Below are positions 38,643-45,087 of a stretch of DNA of 48,507 nt, one piece after another; within the stretch, counting starts at the first letter, position 1, and each line of letters starts with the position of its first letter. Position numbers and translations under genes: made by a program. The notes beneath the pieces were generated by a model, which searched no databases, was not told where the DNA came from, and saw only the letters and a list, made by a program, of their open reading frames with translations. Source of the stretch: a virus (Duplodnaviria > Caudoviricetes); the IMG/VR virus record IMGVR_UViG_3300034073_003137, positions 1 through 48,507 of that record; one strand, written 5' to 3'.

Positions 38643-39043
38643 TATCGTGTTGGCTGAAGTGCGAATGACAACTGTTGAGGAAGAACATCAATTCCAATAA
38701 TTTTATAATTGATTGTAACGTTAAATTCGTTATTATCATAATTCGGAGAAATAATTACATCTATTAATTCCACTCTTGGTTCATATCTGTTAATAGTGTT
38801 GGTTATTTCATCTCTTATAATTGATGCTGAAATATCATCTATGTTTTCAAAGAGAGATCTACCTACTTTTGATCCTAGATTCTCATTAAAGAATCTTTCA
38901 CCGGGTTGGGTAAGCACAAGATTTCTTACAGACCTAGCAATAGCACTTTCATTTTTAAGTGCAATAAGATCGTAGTTCAGGGGATTTGCCTGAAACGTCA
39001 TGCTTAAATCTTTAAATCCTCTGCTTACCCTTTCTAAAGGCAT
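38642..39043 (-). CDS. g25: baseplate wedge subunit gp25
   Basis: AIARSVRNLVLTQPGERFF and INRYEPRV motifs; ATAAATA at 39064-39070. Confidence 0.95.
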   Translation of the reverse strand: MPLERVSRGFKDLSMTFQANPLNYDLIALKNESAIARSVRNLVLTQPGERFFNENLGSKVGRSLFENIDDISASIIRDEITNTINRYEPRVELIDVIISPNYDNNEFNVTINYKIIGIDVLPQQLSFALQPTR

Positions 39044-39062
39044 GAAATAAAATAAATCTATA

Positions 39063-39302
39063 TTATTTATTCATTTGATAAAGAGGTTCGGTTCCATATT
39101 CCCAGTCATCATAATCATTGTCATTTCTAATTTTCTCATGAATTTCATTTTGAATTGCGAAATCATGTCTTTTGGGGGTGTAATCATCGTGATTAATTTC
39201 ACGAAGCATCTTTTGTTCTGAAAATGCTCCGTAGTCAGATGCTAAACGATCTGTTCCCCACATTTTTCTCATATATTCAGTGTTTCTATCTGATTGTGAC
39301 AT
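39063..39302 (-). CDS. hypothetical protein (79 aa, MSQSDRN...)
   Basis: ATG at 39302 preceded by AGGAG; this start avoids the overlap with the upstream ORF. Confidence 0.7.
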   Translation of the reverse strand: MSQSDRNTEYMRKMWGTDRLASDYGAFSEQKMLREINHDDYTPKRHDFAIQNEIHEKIRNDNDYDDWEYGTEPLYQMNK

Positions 39303-39345
39303 TTGTTTTCTCCTGATTTGAAAATCAGAACTTTTAAAGGGGTTT

Positions 39346-39957
39346 CTATCCCTTGTCGTTGTCAATCAAAAATCCAAGTCTATGATAATCCTCATCCTCT
39401 ACAAATGTATACTTACTATCTATATTCATATCTTCTCCTTTCCAGACTGGTATTGCAACTGAATTCCCATATCTAAAATCAGAATTCCTTCGGAAATGAA
39501 CCTCAATAAGTTTACCCTCAATAAATTCACAATTAATCCATTCATATGTTTCTTTGAATGAATTCAATATCTTTGGAAATTCAACTTCACGATTCACCTT
39601 ATACCATCTAGACCACTTATAGAGAGCGTTTTGCTGCGATCTTTCCCCCTTCACAATAAGACTCGGTATTCCTCTTCTAAAATCCACACTCAAATGTTCT
39701 CCTGAGAATAATTCACACCAGAACTCTGAGGGATGTAGATGTTCTGTTGAGTCTTCAATGAATTCTACACGAGAAAAACGGCCCATACCCATAAGGTTCA
39801 TAGAAGGCCTTACAATATAAAAGTCGGGTTTAGGAACCGAGAGTCCTGCTGGACCACAGTTATATCCTAAAACCCGACTAAGTATCAGTTTATTATAAAC
39901 CCAAAGGTCCTCTGAATGTATTGAATTCCACTCTGAGGAGACCTCCAGATGATACAT
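39346..39957 (-). CDS. hypothetical protein (203 aa), possible ATP-grasp-like fold
   Basis: YIVRP..NLMGMG, ELFSGEHLSVDF and INCEFIEGKLIEVHFR loosely resemble ATP-grasp motifs. Confidence 0.6.
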   Translation of the reverse strand: MYHLEVSSEWNSIHSEDLWVYNKLILSRVLGYNCGPAGLSVPKPDFYIVRPSMNLMGMGRFSRVEFIEDSTEHLHPSEFWCELFSGEHLSVDFRRGIPSLIVKGERSQQNALYKWSRWYKVNREVEFPKILNSFKETYEWINCEFIEGKLIEVHFRRNSDFRYGNSVAIPVWKGEDMNIDSKYTFVEDEDYHRLGFLIDNDKG

Positions 39958-39960
39958 AAA

Positions 39961-40101
39961 TTATTTTCCCTGACCTCTATACTTTTTCCCTGCACCATTC
40001 CGAGAGGTTGCGGAATACTTTGTGTGCTTCCCTAGACCCTGACGGGTGTTCTTGGGATTTGATTCAATTTTTTGTCCGTTTAGATTCGGTCTTTTTGCCA
40101 T
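39961..40101 (-). CDS. small basic protein (46 aa); absent from the ORF track
   Basis: MAKRPNLNGQKIESNPKNTRQGLGKHTKYSATSRNGAGKKYRGQGK with a strong AAGGAG SD. Confidence 0.8.
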   Translation of the reverse strand: MAKRPNLNGQKIESNPKNTRQGLGKHTKYSATSRNGAGKKYRGQGK

Positions 40102-40116
40102 AATGATTCTCCTTTA

Positions 40117-40899
40117 TCAAATAACTCTGATCTTTTCGTGACCAACACGAATTCGTGGATCACACCAAATTTCAAATCCAGCATCTTTTGCATCGAGACA
40201 GAATGATACGTCTTCTCCGCACATATCCTGGACATTCCCAGATTCAAAAACCTGCATCTTTGGAGCAAACCAAGGATACTCAAGATTTTCAAATACTCCT
40301 TTCTTAATCAGAACCCAACCAAATCCAGTATAATCAACTGTAAATGGTTTTCTACGTTTTGAAATTGATTCAACGGTTTCGTGATTCATCACTCCACCAT
40401 TCTTTCGGAAGTCATCTTCTTCCAACCAGTGAGCAACAGATGTGGTATGACCATCTTCTGTTGCATACCAACCAGCAACAATTTCCTTTTCTACGGTAGT
40501 TCCTTCTTCGTCTTCTGTCAATGCCAGATCACAGAGTTGCCAGAACTTTTCTGTATTAAAAACAATGTCACTATCAATCCAGAGTTGATAGTCATAATTG
40601 AGTTTTCCATCCCAAGGAATCTGATTGGGTCCTCTGAGAACATTTGCTCCTAGACACTTACAACGAGCAAAGTTTACCATTGATGAATAATCTTGTGAGA
40701 TCTGAATGCTCATTCCATTCTGAACCATATCAAAACAGAGTTGAACAAAACTTTTCAGAAATGTAAATGAACACCCTCTGCCGGGAAGACAGAAGACAAT
40801 TGATTTACCTTTCATTCTTTCTTTAATCGCATCATAATCCCACTGTGCTTCCTTTGCAACCGTGGGAGTTTTTGCCTTTACAGTGAATCCTTTTGCCAT
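40117..40899 (-). CDS. GT-A fold (family 2-like) glycosyltransferase
   Basis: DxD motif WIDSDIVF; TGFGWVLIK; GEDVSFC; C-terminal DPRIRVGH. Confidence 0.8.
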   Translation of the reverse strand: MAKGFTVKAKTPTVAKEAQWDYDAIKERMKGKSIVFCLPGRGCSFTFLKSFVQLCFDMVQNGMSIQISQDYSSMVNFARCKCLGANVLRGPNQIPWDGKLNYDYQLWIDSDIVFNTEKFWQLCDLALTEDEEGTTVEKEIVAGWYATEDGHTTSVAHWLEEDDFRKNGGVMNHETVESISKRRKPFTVDYTGFGWVLIKKGVFENLEYPWFAPKMQVFESGNVQDMCGEDVSFCLDAKDAGFEIWCDPRIRVGHEKIRVI

Positions 40900-40922
40900 A
40901 AGAGTTAATAACTTTCAATACA

Positions 40923-40951
40923 ATTTTAATCGTTTATTTAGAACTTGTCAA
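40923..40951 (-). promoter_or_regulatory. sigma70-type promoter TTGACA-17-TAAAAT with an embedded late box CTAAATA
   Basis: TGTCAA 40946-40951, ATTTTA 40923-40928 and TATTTAG 40935-40941 on the plus strand, upstream of the glycosyltransferase. Confidence 0.7.
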
Positions 40952-41143
40952 TTAATGAGAAGAATCACGCACCACCTCGGAATTCAGTGTGAGTTCCTCA
41001 TATGAGAGATCACACACATTATACTCCGTGTTTGCGATGCTCACGAAGTTTTTTAGAGTATTCCAAACCACTGGGAATTCTTCTTCGTGAATTGAATGAT
41101 AAACACATTTATCCTTTGCATATATGTGATATATTTTGTGCAT
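40952..41143 (-). CDS. hypothetical protein (63 aa, MHKIYHIYAK...)
   Basis: ATG at 41143, just after the stop of the upstream small ORF. Confidence 0.65.
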   Translation of the reverse strand: MHKIYHIYAKDKCVYHSIHEEEFPVVWNTLKNFVSIANTEYNVCDLSYEELTLNSEVVRDSSH

Positions 41144-41147
41144 TGGT

Positions 41148-41291
41148 TTATTTTGCCAACGCATTATATATGATGACAATCAGAAACCCAATGGGCACTC
41201 CGATAATACGCAGAGTCTGCTTCGGATATCTGATTAACCACCCAGCAAACACAACCTTCCAAAAATTCCAATAGGGGGTTCTTCTTTTCAT
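41148..41291 (-). CDS. small membrane protein (47 aa); absent from the ORF track
   Basis: MKRRTPYWNFWKVVFAGWLIRYPKQTLRIIGVPIGFLIVIIYNALAK; basic N-terminus and hydrophobic C-terminal helix. Confidence 0.7.
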   Translation of the reverse strand: MKRRTPYWNFWKVVFAGWLIRYPKQTLRIIGVPIGFLIVIIYNALAK

Positions 41292-41474
41292 CTCAAAAAT
41301 TTTCTGCGGGATTTTTTTATCTAAAAGGGTATTTGGGGTGAGTTTTTCCTGGGGGATTTTTTTATATGCAGGGGAGGTATAGAACGCTCGTGAGTGTAGA
41401 TCCTTGTAGGTTAGAAAGTCTTAAAAACCTTAAAGGGGGCGTTACGCAAAATATAAGGAATAAGAAACAATCAT

Positions 41475-41800
41475 AATAACTGCTAACACGAATAAAGAAT
41501 AAGTGTTATTCGTGTGTTATTCGTTATATTTTGTGCCCTTCTTTATACTGTCTGCTCATACTTTCCAGTATATAATTATATTCAGAACAGTTGTTTACAT
41601 AAGAAACGAACAATTCATTGTGTATTAGAATAAAACAACGAATTGTTTATACTATCTCACGAGTTGTTTATTCTTTATAAGAACTCACGTAGAGATAATG
41701 ATTGTGAGTTCTCAGTTGTGAAACAACTGTTCTGAGTATAAAGATATACGAACATCTGAATGTTTTCAGTATAAGTTACCAACGAACATTCAGATCTTCG
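41475..41800. repeat. cluster of inverted repeats, potentially a structured RNA or DNA element
   Basis: 41486-95/41506-15 (10 bp); 41577-96/41721-40 (19 of 20 bp) enclosing inner stems; 41749-64/41785-800 (15 of 16 bp). Confidence 0.7.
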
Positions 41801-41943
41801 ACATAAGACTTCACCTTCTCATTGGGTTCTAGTTTGAATAACTTTTTCCAATCAATCTGATGTGGATTGAAATCTTCTAATGCCTCAATCTCTAATGTGA
41901 TACGATACCTATTCTTTTGTGCAGCAAGATAAGAACTAGACAT
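41776..41943 (-). CDS. hypothetical protein (55 aa); absent from the ORF track
   Basis: MSSSYLAAQKNRYRITLEIEALEDFNPHQIDWKKLFKLEPNEKVKSYVEDLNVRW; candidate promoter at 41983-42012. Confidence 0.7.
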   Translation of the reverse strand: MSSSYLAAQKNRYRITLEIEALEDFNPHQIDWKKLFKLEPNEKVKSYVEDLNVRW

Positions 41944-41982
41944 AAGACGTAAGAAGCAGGGTGAACGAATGACTGAACGATA

Positions 41983-42012
41983 AGTCTACCAGATATAACT
42001 GTCTACTGTCAA
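41983..42012 (-). promoter_or_regulatory. sigma70-type promoter TTGACA-18-TAGACT with extended -10 TG
   Basis: TGTCAA 42007-42012 and AGTCTA 41983-41988 on the plus strand. Confidence 0.55.
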
Positions 42013-42016
42013 CCGT

Positions 42017-42399
42017 ATTACACGAATAAGATAAGAACACGAATGAGACTGTGTGTGAGTCCTTATACATTGTTCTTATCCTTGCCCTTATAAACGAATC
42101 AAAATCATACACGAATGATCTTATGCTTTATAAGAACAAATGTGATTGATTTTGAATTCCTATACGAACAGACTCTAAACACGAATAAGTCTCAAAGGAA
42201 AAGAAAAGTCATAAGCATATTTATTCAGTTGTATACGATTTTCTTATATACACGAATGAATGTGTGAGTATAAGAACATTGTATTGTTGTGAAATGAGAT
42301 CTTATACGATAAGACTCTAATCACGAATCAGGATTGTGTCATTATAGAATATCTGTCATTCGATGTCAAGTCTTATACGATTGCCTTCTAATCACGAAT
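42017..42399. repeat. six-unit periodic array (70-72 bp period) of the bipartite motif TA-YACGA-N12-CACGAAT
   Basis: CACGAAT starts at 42038, 42110, 42180, 42251, 42322 and 42393; each has an NACGA half-site exactly 17 bp upstream (42021, 42093, 42163, 42234, 42305, 42376). Confidence 0.9.
42341..42369 (-). promoter_or_regulatory. consensus sigma70 promoter TTGACA-17-TATAAT inside the array, firing leftwards
   Basis: ATTATA 42341-42346 and TGTCAA 42364-42369 on the plus strand. Confidence 0.8.
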
Positions 42400-42496
42400 T
42401 GATTCTAATTCTTATAATGCTTCTCAGAGGCATCTGTATGCCCCAGGAAGGGGGTTCAAATAAGGTCTTAGTATGTTTCCCTTCTTATACTCTATT

Positions 42497-42527
42497 ATTA
42501 CCCCTTCGGGGTAATTTCCTTCGGAAA
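42497..42527. other. two adjacent perfect hairpins with 3-nt loops (GAA on the minus strand)
   Basis: ATTACCCC-TTC-GGGGTAAT (42497-42515) and TTTCC-TTC-GGAAA (42515-42527). Confidence 0.75.
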
Positions 42528-42581
42528 CGTTTCTGATTGTTTATAAGATCTTATACCCTTATCTTCATCGGTAACAAACCT

Positions 42582-42611
42582 ATTCTAATTGTATTCTTAT
42601 AGGTCTGTCAA
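42582..42611 (-). promoter_or_regulatory. sigma70-type promoter TTGACA-18-TAGAAT, firing leftwards
   Basis: TGTCAA 42606-42611 and ATTCTA 42582-42587 on the plus strand. Confidence 0.6.
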
Positions 42612-42614
42612 GTG

Positions 42615-42643
42615 TTGACTTATAAGAACTAATGTCTTATAAT
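42615..42643 (+). promoter_or_regulatory. sigma70-type promoter TTGACT-17-TATAAT, firing rightwards
   Basis: TTGACT 42615-42620 and TATAAT 42638-42643. Confidence 0.7.
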
Positions 42644-42778
42644 AACGAAATCAGGATAGAACATAGAATTATAAAGATATATTCAGAAGTCTTATATGCA
42701 CTTATAAGGTCTAATCACGAAGTCTTATAGTATTTGGATTTCTTATGTCAGGGGGTACAGATTCTTATGTGTCCCCTC

Positions 42779-42807
42779 TTGACAAAAAAAGGTCTGCGTG
42801 TTATAAT
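42779..42807 (+). promoter_or_regulatory. consensus sigma70 promoter TTGACA-17-TATAAT with extended -10 TG
   Basis: TTGACA 42779-42784, TG 42799-42800 and TATAAT 42802-42807. Confidence 0.85.
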
Positions 42808-42939
42808 AAAACGTCCAAGATCACATAAGAACTGGGACATAAAAGGCATAAGTGAGCATAAAGAATACAAAGAATAATAAGTGTTAAGAATTATAAGAAA
42901 TATCAGCAAAACAAAACATTAATTTAATAATAACTTAAT

Positions 42940-42946
42940 CTAAATA
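42940..42946 (+). promoter_or_regulatory. late promoter box CTAAATA upstream of the endonuclease
   Basis: CTAAATA about 28 nt before the ATG at 42974, similar to the spacing upstream of structural genes. Confidence 0.5.
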
Positions 42947-42973
42947 CAAACAACGGAAATATATTTTATTGCA

Positions 42974-44002
42974 ATGGCGTACATCTACTCAATAACAAAC
43001 TTAGTCAATAATAAGATTTACATCGGTCTTACTACTAAATCAAATCCTTATGATAGATGGAAGCAACATTTATACCTAGCAAAGAATAAGGATAATTTAT
43101 CTGAATCAAATTCTGCTTATACAATGCCAATCATAAGAGCAATTAGTAAGTATGGTGCAGATAAGTTTAAGTTTAGAGTTGTAGAGGAATGTGATGATAA
43201 TATTGTAAATAAAAGAGAAAAGTATTGGATTGAGAAATTTGATACTTGTAGCAATAAAGGATATAATGCTACATTAGGTGGTGAAGGTGTAAATAAACCT
43301 CGTAAGTATTGGAGTAACCATCCAAATAGTAAACCAATTAGTTGTTTTACATTAGAAGGTGAATGGGTAAAAGATTATGATACTGCTGGTGTTGCTGCTG
43401 ATTGTTTAGGTAACAAAAAGGGGAAAACATCTATTAGTGCTTGTATAAAAGGAATTACATTTCAAGCACTTGGGTATAGATGGGCATATAAAGGTGAAAC
43501 TCCTAAACTAATTGAAAAAAGAGTTAATCGTCGTGGTGAGATATATGGCATACATTTAAAAAGTGATCGTAAGAAAATGTGGAAATGTGCTGCTGATTTT
43601 GCAGAAGAAATTATTGGTAATCGTAGATCAAATAATGGTATTGTTCAGTCATTGAATAGTCCAAACAATAATAAACTACAAGTTTATGATTGGTATTTGT
43701 TTAGAAATAAAAATGATGCTTTGAGTGATTGGACTCCTGCAAAAAGAGCAAATTATAGTTCTGACTACTTTTCAAAGTTAGGTAAATTGAGTGCAAAAAA
43801 GAAGAGTGTTGCTGTAAAAGGAGTAAATGTAAATACTGGTGAAGTAGTTGAATTTAACAGTATTTGTGAAGCATCATACTTTATAAAGGGTGAAGGAGAT
43901 AGAAGTGCTGTTCCTAACATTCATAAGAACATTAAAAGATTAGAGAATGGTCAGAGATGGTGTTATGCTTTTGGGTATCGTTGGTATAAAAATTATTCAT
44001 AA
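42974..44002 (+). CDS. free-standing GIY-YIG (Seg-like) homing endonuclease with NUMOD1-like C-terminal repeats
   Basis: YIYSITNLVNNKIYIG, RWKQH, REKYWIEKF and GYNATLGGEG motifs; repeated modules ending GYRWAY and GYRWY. Confidence 0.92.
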   Translation: MAYIYSITNLVNNKIYIGLTTKSNPYDRWKQHLYLAKNKDNLSESNSAYTMPIIRAISKYGADKFKFRVVEECDDNIVNKREKYWIEKFDTCSNKGYNATLGGEGVNKPRKYWSNHPNSKPISCFTLEGEWVKDYDTAGVAADCLGNKKGKTSISACIKGITFQALGYRWAYKGETPKLIEKRVNRRGEIYGIHLKSDRKKMWKCAADFAEEIIGNRRSNNGIVQSLNSPNNNKLQVYDWYLFRNKNDALSDWTPAKRANYSSDYFSKLGKLSAKKKSVAVKGVNVNTGEVVEFNSICEASYFIKGEGDRSAVPNIHKNIKRLENGQRWCYAFGYRWYKNYS

Positions 44003-44202
44003 TCCATTTCATAATAGGCAGAAATCACAATATCATCATTTTGATGAACTAACTTAGACATTCGGGAATGAATGTTTGAGACATTATAGTTAGTGAATTG
44101 TGCTTCATCGAGAATGGAATACAGTTGCTTTCTTTCTCGTTGTGTTTTTGGTTTGCGTAGAGCACAGGAATTGTAATGTGCGTTGCGATGAGTGCGAGAC
44201 AT
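43993..44202 (-). CDS. hypothetical protein (69 aa)
   Basis: MSRTHR...LRKPKTQRER; last gene of the small-ORF cluster; GGAG upstream. Confidence 0.65.
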   Translation of the reverse strand: MSRTHRNAHYNSCALRKPKTQRERKQLYSILDEAQFTNYNVSNIHSRMSKLVHQNDDIVISAYYEMDYE

Positions 44203-44203
44203 T

Positions 44204-44329
44204 CTATTTCTTCTCCGTAGTGAGAACAGTTACAATAGTTGAATCAGGAGTCAGATAATCAATTTGAACAACAGTTGGGGAGATTTGTTGTTTGCCGACA
44301 ATCGTAGAAATCAGAAGAAGTTCAAGCAT
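44204..44329 (-). CDS. small hypothetical protein (41 aa); absent from the ORF track
   Basis: MLELLLISTIVGKQQISPTVVQIDYLTPDSTIVTVLTTEKK; tiles the gap between neighbours. Confidence 0.55.
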   Translation of the reverse strand: MLELLLISTIVGKQQISPTVVQIDYLTPDSTIVTVLTTEKK

Positions 44330-44450
44330 TTTTTTGAATCAGTCGAATGGACTCAGTAATCGAAGTAGTCAGATAAAGTGGTTGATACGATGCATTGGTG
44401 ATCGCATAAACAACCTGTTTTGTTTCTACATCGTATGTATAAACAATCAT
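44322..44450 (-). CDS. small hypothetical protein (42 aa); absent from the ORF track
   Basis: MIVYTYDVETKQVVYAITNASYQPLYLTTSITESIRLIQKNA; ATGA overlap with the upstream ORF. Confidence 0.55.
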   Translation of the reverse strand: MIVYTYDVETKQVVYAITNASYQPLYLTTSITESIRLIQKNA

Positions 44451-44641
44451 TTGATTTTTGATTTCAGAAGAGAAAGAACACATTCACGATCAATACTATC
44501 ACCTAGAAACTTTTCATTCTTAATTCTCAGAATTTGTAGATGAGTTGATGTTGCCTTTTTGATTTGTTTGAGTGTGTATCCATTTCCGTAAATCCCATCG
44601 GGACCATAGAAGGATAGCACATAATCGTAGAAGTCAGTCAT
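44447..44641 (-). CDS. hypothetical protein (64 aa, MTDFYDYVLSFYGPDGIY...)
   Basis: ATG at 44641; YVLSFYG..GIY and F.GDSIDRE motifs. Confidence 0.7.
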   Translation of the reverse strand: MTDFYDYVLSFYGPDGIYGNGYTLKQIKKATSTHLQILRIKNEKFLGDSIDRECVLSLLKSKIK

Positions 44642-44651
44642 TGAGACATAA

Positions 44652-44885
44652 TCAGGAAAGAATGTGACGGTAAGAAAGAGAGTCAATCATCCAACCGCAT
44701 TGTGCGGTGAGTTCTTCGACTAATTCATTGCCAATGTCCTCATCATCAGCATCATCGGGAACTTCAATCTCAACAATGTAACCTACATACTCCTCTTGAA
44801 GATGCTCTTGAAGATTTGGTTGTTGAAGTAGATCATCAGAATCGAGATCGAAAGAAATGTCGGTGACTTGAAGTTGGAGAATCAT
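44652..44885 (-). CDS. acidic hypothetical protein (77 aa)
   Basis: Collinear ORF; VTDISFD...ELVEELTAQCGWMIDSLSY. Confidence 0.7.
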   Translation of the reverse strand: MILQLQVTDISFDLDSDDLLQQPNLQEHLQEEYVGYIVEIEVPDDADDEDIGNELVEELTAQCGWMIDSLSYRHILS

Positions 44886-44886
44886 T

Positions 44887-45087
44887 TCAGAAACTTTCGG
44901 TTGCTTGTTGTTGCATCATCACATCTGTTTCCATCAGATTGAGATTGTCTTCATTCCAGGCATCAGCAATGAAATCACCTTCCTCATCATAAAGTTCACT
45001 CAACCAATAATCATAGAGTGAAGCATTGAGATCAGCAAGATTCGCAAATGCGTTGCTGATTGCGTCGTTGATTTGCATTTGAGTCAT
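44887..45087 (-). CDS. acidic hypothetical protein (66 aa, MTQMQIND...)
   Basis: ATG at 45087 after a pyrimidine-rich leader. Confidence 0.65.
   Translation of the reverse strand: MTQMQINDAISNAFANLADLNASLYDYWLSELYDEEGDFIADAWNEDNLNLMETDVMMQQQATESF

Follow-up and report, generated by a model that had tools for sequence, protein, structure and literature searches.

Short repeat arrays at phage termini are familiar from lambda, where cosB carries the sites R1-R3, and from SPP1 with its pacL and pacR boxes, while in T7 the SRL and SRR repeats adjoin the 160-bp terminal repeat. Classical terminase sites of this kind lie nearer to the genome ends than the array described below lies to its boundaries. 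In the accessible parts of three papers (PMC4893331, PMC9146016, PMC7852597) the T4-like cyanophages count as circularly permuted or as probable headful packagers of the T4 type. Sequencing of S-PM2d gave approximately twofold coverage at 10.5-12 kb, the cause of which was called unexplained, and a similar excess occurred at 137.8-139 kb in S-RSM4 (Rihtman 2016, PMC4893331); in the available text the authors argue against exact terminal repeats and report no repeated units. The S-PM2 patch is read as terminal redundancy in the available part of a further study (Puxty 2015, PMC4503421).

The locus considered here lies in a stretch of 48,507 nucleotides (the window), the record of a virus estimated to be 23% complete. 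Baseplate wedge genes are present, and the 260-aa product of a gene near the array is 82-87% identical to proteins of the Synechococcus phages S-SM2, Bellamy and S-SCSM1; on these grounds the window phage is taken to be a T4-like cyanophage related to the Kyanoviridae, its host being presumed from this relationship. The array and the smaller repeats around it are as follows.

42017..42405, plus strand: six-unit array, two ACGA(A) half-sites per unit, 17 bp apart
42710..42721, plus strand: lone right half of the repeat, TCTAATCACGAA, a partial copy
41486..41790, plus strand: additional ACGAA sites between the core and the 55-aa gene, at 41488, 41606, 41638, 41748 and 41782
42497..42526, no strand: two small inverted repeats with a CTTCG/CGAAG centre, present in several, not all, relatives

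The pattern ACGA-N12-CACGAAT matches exactly at 42022, 42094, 42164, 42235, 42306 and 42377. A preliminary description of this DNA had reported six copies of CACGAAT, each with a second half-site 17 bp upstream, and both statements are borne out: the copies start from 42038 to 42393 with unit spacings of 72, 70, 71, 71 and 71, and the two ACGA cores of each unit start 17 bp apart. The upstream half-site had been given as TAYACGA, whereas that of unit 2 is TAAACGA, and the linker is 12 nt long instead of the ~10 nt first proposed. Each unit consists of a conserved stretch of ~28-31 bp followed by a T-rich spacer of ~40 bp. When at most one mismatch is allowed, the window holds seven matches against 0.25 expected per shuffled window, and seven were reached in 0 of 100 shuffles. 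Tandem Repeats Finder does not have the array among its reported repeats, and the window's copy is unusually degenerate compared with those of its relatives. The partial copy announced at ~42710 is there as TCTAATCACGAA, and the stretch said to be shared by spacers 2 and 4 is TATAAGAACA, at 42129 and 42269 respectively.

Other small repeats accompany the array. The stretch with the additional ACGAA sites also holds inverted TTCGT at 41509 and 41520, and arms of 29 bp, 90% complementary and 124 nt apart, form an inverted repeat at 41568-41749, directly downstream of the 55-aa gene. The paired inverted repeats with a CTTCG/CGAAG centre at 42497-42526 recur in L001, L034, L061 and L064, and could form stable GAA-triloop DNA hairpins on the minus strand.

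A search of IMG/VR with a two-unit pattern returned 46 loci, as the preliminary description had suggested should be attempted, and motif, period and locus proved to be conserved. In 44 of these contigs, all from T4-like cyanophage relatives, the array occupies the same locus, with the 55-aa ORF directly to its left and then usually genes for proteins of 47, 75 and 260 aa. The remaining two (L030 and L038) are 17-bp tandem repeats devoid of the flanking genes and were dropped; they consist of about six copies of CACGAATGTAATTTATC in an unrelated viral context and satisfy the same search pattern. The 44 loci reduce to ~16 distinct arrays of 4-6 units, with periods of 68-73 bp (70 intervals) and the consensus TACGAAnCTTATCTAATCACGAATGA. 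Taken over 94 units from 24 arrays, which are not independent units, the unit consensus is TACGAAnCTTATCTAATCACGAATGAnTT, and the T-rich spacer behind it carries little information; the invariant letters of the consensus are set by the search pattern, whereas the consensus of linker and flanks is not. The linker of the same 94 units has the consensus CTTATCTAAT, which argues for selection on sequence as well as on spacing, so that of the original proposal of selection on geometry rather than sequence the first half stands and the second does not.

Between orthologous arrays (14 pairs) repeat identity is 0.84-1.00 and spacer identity 0.63-0.98, and the spacers, which have a GC content of 29%, keep the same order with no turnover; they are inherited vertically. 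Linkers are more alike within arrays (0.75) than between arrays (0.63), and spacers within an array are barely more alike (0.55) than shuffled ones (0.49). Period and position persist even where the 55-aa protein of the phage shares only 57-78% identity with that of the window, and eroded arrays occur in some relatives (L061, L064). Ten long contigs were searched for the motif: in the nine that bear arrays it is restricted to the array locus, and the tenth had none, and the density of ACGAA is maximal at the array locus in five of five contigs. The cultured relatives tested lack the array. Scans of metagenomes and genomes with a looser pattern gave at least 147 loci, with the 55-aa gene at 12 of the 147 listed and at 0 of 27 genome matches; looser-pattern loci lacking this gene were set aside after motif counts and GC content. 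Full-text literature searches, to which most subscription papers were closed, yielded no account of either the array or the boundary motifs introduced below.

The genes and promoters around the array in the window are these.

41776..41943, minus strand: 55-aa ORF, phrog_12516, beta-alpha-beta by prediction, without a fold match; neighbours the array at 44 of 46 loci
41983..42012, minus strand: sigma70-like promoter of the 55-aa gene, conserved, with 9/12 or better in each of the 21 arrays scored
42341..42369, minus strand: leftward sigma70-like promoter within spacer 5, perfect (12/12) and lineage-specific, 1 of 93 distinct units
42582..42611, minus strand: second leftward sigma70-like site, 11/12
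42974..44002, plus strand: GIY-YIG homing endonuclease, an optional insertion outside the predicted repeat and not part of the element

For the 55-aa protein 50 homologues were found, every one of them short and lacking a Pfam domain; its model has a pLDDT of 71, Foldseek and VIA gave no match, and the Atlas clusters found are only unnamed ones. The gene also occurs in phages that lack the array, and marine isolates possess both gene and promoter without it. The two leftward promoters of the preliminary description exist as sites, but they are not conserved: the one within the array is confined to its lineage, and a leftward promoter after the array is found in only eight of 21 arrays. GIY-YIG genes lie beside two of the 22 array loci that have at least 1.4 kb of right flank. 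The endonuclease was rejected as a partner of the array: the relatives' copies are 29-44% identical to the window's, and in run X14 a contig of a close strain skips the gene, joining 42918 to 43991. Beyond the rightward promoter, divergent GIY-YIG genes of this 29-44% identity turn up again on the opposite strand in L033, L046, L059, L070, L155, L171, L263 and L303, a recurrence that suggests an insertion hot-spot. Of 21 clade-enriched proteins scanned against Pfam, none matched a DNA-binding family; a 54-aa early ORF (L350:6702-6863), present in three array-bearing contigs, resembles a ribbon-helix-helix protein by eye and has no Pfam hit. In S-SRM01 (L080:3760-3890) five copies of CTCGTCGAGA lie upstream of the 55-aa homologue, partly within a small acidic ORF.

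The array is positioned between two conserved non-coding motifs, which delimit a predicted segment.

41290..41470, plus strand: non-coding core, family-wide, with A/T tracts, TGTAGGTTAG at 41405-41414 and a GC-rich tail
42779..42825, plus strand: rightward sigma70-like promoter, then AAGATCACA (42817); predicted right boundary 42816/42817
41420..42816, no strand: predicted direct terminal repeat or pac-proximal segment of 1397 bp, deduced from the homologous ends of the S-M1 record

The core sits ~600 bp to the left of the array, and the predicted left boundary lies ~5 nt to the right of TGTAGGTTAG. The S-SM2 copy of the core matches 267-288 phage records, nearly all of them cyanophages and mostly unannotated there; the window's core is too divergent for blastn to find a cyanophage record and was assigned by motif and synteny. 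RNAalifold predicted no pairs in the core on either strand in 60 sequences. Directly right of the core many uncultured relatives, with the array or without, have a pair of ACGAAT sites 16-19 bp apart that resembles an array unit, and ACGAA occurs nearby at 56 of 60 cores, a share inflated by the choice of the set. The right-boundary motif (promoter/AAGATCAC, (A/T)AGATCAC) lies ~420 bp to the right of the array; of 61 non-redundant cores 27 could be paired with it, and only three long loci are without it. All ten arrays for which both boundaries are available lie inside the interval, whose predicted length is 1139-2388 bp.

Further repeats are found around the right boundary. In L075, L076 and L072 tandem repeats of 10-22 bp (ACATTTAGAACAAG, GCATTTATAA) with variable copy number follow directly past the AAGATCAC motif, and in S-PM2, at ~19.4-19.6 kb (L253:7420-7620), tandem repeats of the AAATCTTAAG type adjoin a boundary-like motif. 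Clusters of two to four boxes of the TTTTCCACA type, which we take to be the cyanobacterial DnaA box, come after the rightward promoter and are followed by ACATTTTTAATTG in L081 (S-SM2 58064-58093), L034, L061, L070, L075-L079 and L126; other phages have ATTCTCAA/TTGAGAAT inverted pairs in their place.

Ends of isolate genomes deposited in databases fall at homologues of both motifs. In the S-M1 record an exact terminal repeat of 567 bp starts at GCGTGCT/AAGA and stops 5 nt short of GTAGGTTAG, and the WH25-B record starts at the same base as this repeat, the two records beginning at the homologue of the promoter/AAGATCAC motif. A repeat of true length is present in the S-M1 record only, and WH25-B is a close relative, perhaps oriented to S-M1. 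The ends of the RN05-S and S-E7 records overlap by 77 and 127 bp, spanning the core; we read these lengths as typical of assembler k-mers. Two IMG/VR contigs end 15 bp (L058) and 97 bp (L057) past the boundary, and five of eight others end within 140 bp of it. Among the matches listed, the records of S-H9-1, S-H9-2 and S-SCSM1 begin 1.8-2.8 kb from the core and miss the boundary motif, and the majority of records have been oriented to some other place; the predicted left end is the starting point of none of the 44 contigs with an array. An excess of contig ends to the right of the core (43 versus 2 of 80) is attributable to the variable early region and was not counted as evidence.

The ends of records of the S-M1 type are presumably physical termini, and to judge from the two homologous motifs the window phage would use the same boundaries. 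The array would then lie 600-980 bp from the left boundary and more than 400 bp from the right one, inside a predicted repeat of 1397 bp in which 17 of the 36 plus-strand ACGAA sites of the window are found, with the other 19 spread over 47110 bp. The terminal segments of S-M1 and WH25-B are free of ACGAA; since this is so, and since cultured relatives lack the array, it is not required for termini in general. The T4-type terminase family PF11053 was found in five of five relatives searched, and the small terminase genes lie far from the locus.

Coverage offers a further hint. The deeper patches of S-PM2 and S-RSM4 fall in the early cluster, 4-7 kb before gp25 and between the core and a boundary-like motif, and at 1.2-1.5 kb these patches are narrower than the predicted intervals of 3.5 and 5.8 kb; continuous coverage on a circular map would be compatible with a direct repeat. 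In four of four public runs the longest contigs are, weakly, deeper over ~41.3-42.4 kb than most flanking pieces. Given as flank, inside, flank, the depths are 18-25, 41 and 23 in X5; 113-165, 390 and 115-174 in X14; 150, 225-244 and 122 in X3; and mostly 2-4 (one flank 19), 12-15 and 4 in X20. These figures are means summed over mixed strains and are for this reason a hint only; they vary 1.5-3.4-fold, contigs cannot show ends, and in X5 the depth falls at 42387, short of the predicted boundary.

Taken together, the array is very probably a DNA docking array for a sequence-specific protein, which would bind the ACGAA pairs, and on the strength of the homologous boundary motifs it probably lies in a terminal-repeat or pac segment. 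That the docking array serves end processing or packaging within the predicted repeat, through a protein that is a candidate only, is a tentative reading to which we give somewhat less than an even chance. It is favoured because the ACGAA pair lies beside the predicted left cut and has been multiplied nowhere but between the boundaries, an arrangement reminiscent of the end-flanking repeats of T7 and of the lambda repeats after cosN. On the end-processing reading, the ACGAAT pair beside the left boundary would be the basic site, which the array clade would have multiplied at ~71-bp steps, perhaps to hold one protein oligomer per step. The bound protein would be packaging-related, either the small terminase or an accessory protein, and may act in repeat duplication, cutting or packaging. 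Extended to the family, the proposal becomes slightly more tentative still: Kyanoviridae genomes may not be randomly permuted, but may have fixed short terminal repeats cut at the TGTAGGTTAG core and at the promoter/AAGATCAC motif, one clade having placed an ACGAA-pair landing pad inside them for the candidate end-processing protein. This would amount to T7-like handling of the ends by a terminase of the T4 type.

The preliminary description had proposed a protein-binding array of a replication or segregation locus. The conserved motif, period and locus support the first part; of the second, the context points more to a terminus. Units acting as iterons of a replication origin are nevertheless conceivable, with an initiator or helicase loader assembling beside the rightward promoter, DnaA-box-like sites and an AT-rich tract, an arrangement compatible with a terminal location. 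The array does consist of evenly spaced direct repeats at a conserved site, and in S-SM2, G004 and G006 the record's densest cluster of triplets of the TTTTCCACA type lies at the locus and is followed by an AT-rich tract. T4 oriE provides a parallel, having evenly spaced 12-nt repeats that are conserved in relatives and whose role is called ill defined in the accessible part of the source (PMC3016281). Against an origin, there is no skew inflection at the locus or anywhere else in S-SM2 and Bellamy, a test weakened by co-oriented genes; the TTTTCCACA boxes are absent from five of eight records scanned and from the window's stretch, and where present they fall beyond the predicted repeat, at a distance of 0.7-1.4 kb from the array. 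The unit periods of 69-73 bp do not keep a single helical phase, no Rep-like gene is adjacent, and no initiator candidate emerged from the fold searches with the 55-aa protein or from the Pfam-scanned clade-enriched proteins. We consider an origin unlikely. Two related ideas were discarded: the array does not replace the DnaA-like boxes, since both occur together, and the apparent skew minimum of the window is caused by the plus-strand GIY-YIG gene and does not appear in relatives. For a parS-like role, no ParA/ParB-type gene was seen among the 18 neighbouring ORFs scanned in this record, 23% complete as it is.

The units might also be operators or activator sites for the promoter of the 55-aa gene and for neighbouring early promoters, as the array always abuts the conserved sigma70-like promoter (21 of 21). 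Rightward promoter-like sites scoring at least 10/12 moreover occur in eight of 93 spacers against 1.2 expected, five of them with the -35 element right behind the repeat; these five in-register sites, however, look like one inherited spacer of a single sub-lineage, and most units are without a promoter, which is also why the idea of an array of promoters was rejected. The 55-aa gene and its promoter do without the array in marine isolates, and four to six double sites over 350 bp would exceed the needs of one small gene, so that control of early transcription is an improbable function.

Still less probable is a role at DNA entry, in which the sites would serve as decoys that catch a host protein involved in DNA binding or defence, or would signal a pause or end protection on the DNA that goes in first or last. 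The injection-stop region of T5 carries repeats, a terminal position would suit such a function, and ACGAA is concentrated in the predicted repeat; a decoy, on the other hand, needs neither a fixed period nor a single orientation, and of the 27 matches in bacterial genomes none is cyanobacterial, the exact two-unit pattern being a poor test of host sites.

It is very unlikely that the array is transcribed and cut into ~71-nt RNAs serving as guides or as a protein sponge, the second suggestion of the preliminary description, which had named the GIY-YIG protein and the 55-aa ORF as possible partners. The array has the dimensions of a CRISPR array, the window's copy is predicted to fold more stably than its shuffled versions, with z of -2.7 in one calculation and about -3.4 on both strands in another, and one metatranscriptome contig spans 41656-42389, where DNA carry-over is possible and the strand is not given. 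Over 11 arrays, however, the fold z ranges from -3.5 to +2.0 on both strands, and the fold of the window is strand-symmetric. No Rfam family, CRISPR repeats included, falls on the array (a scan of 39000-45000 gave two weak unrelated hits elsewhere), and the promoters reading through it are not conserved. The spacers are positionally inherited and have no match in phage records, where the earlier account had proposed to look for their targets. That account was right in calling the repeats not CRISPR-like and free of cas genes, as neither an Rfam match nor spacer turnover nor a nearby cas gene was seen. Because the spacers are vertical, a conserved RNA fold is wanting and GIY-YIG is an optional passenger, the guide-RNA reading is not supported; the 55-aa gene fares no better as a partner, occurring as it does in phages without arrays. 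A neutral, decaying tandem duplication, with which the fourfold-site-like rate of spacer drift in close pairs and the eroded arrays would agree, is largely refuted by repeats that stay 84-100% identical while spacers within arrays are near the shuffled level, and by a period, motif and position that outlast the divergence of the 55-aa proteins, and is the least probable of all.

The docking array in its predicted terminal setting draws its interest mainly from the fixed ends that it implies for a family usually treated as permuted. The two boundary motifs yield base-level predictions of genome ends across the family, with repeats of 718 bp foreseen for S-SM2 and 470 bp for Bellamy, and the array provides a defined 28-bp bait for the protein that would handle them. 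Were the ends indeed fixed, DNA entry would have to be read differently, and likewise the siting of early genes and the gain of genes in the hot-spot.

Among described systems, CRISPR arrays, phage mini-arrays and TIGR arrays share with the window array the dimensions of repeat and spacer and a degenerate first unit, but the window array shows no spacer turnover, Rfam CRISPR match, conserved fold or box C/D motifs, and no cas or Nop-domain gene was seen near it. The ~1.2-1.5-kb regions of S-PM2 and S-RSM4, as far as they are described in the accessible text, occupy the same syntenic interval, where the early cluster finishes a few kb ahead of gp25, with about twofold depth; they differ in having no array and in patches narrower than the distance from core to boundary. 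T4 oriE (PMC3016281, available part) resembles the array in that its direct repeats are regularly spaced, occupy a syntenic site in T4-like phages and have an early-type promoter nearby; its repeats, however, are 12 nt long and sit where the strand switches and the skew shifts, and the window array has bipartite units, a ~71-bp period and neither a strand switch nor a skew change. Overall the comparison suggests repeated protein sites at a phage end or origin, known in kind, in a form that we did not find described. With T7, lambda and SPP1 the array has in common that direct sites are repeated in non-coding DNA near a genome end, as predicted here, and that a promoter lies at one boundary; it is set apart from them by its two-part 28-bp unit and ~71-bp period, by its predicted position within the repeat, hundreds of bases from either boundary, and by the T4-type terminase (PF11053) of the phages that carry it.
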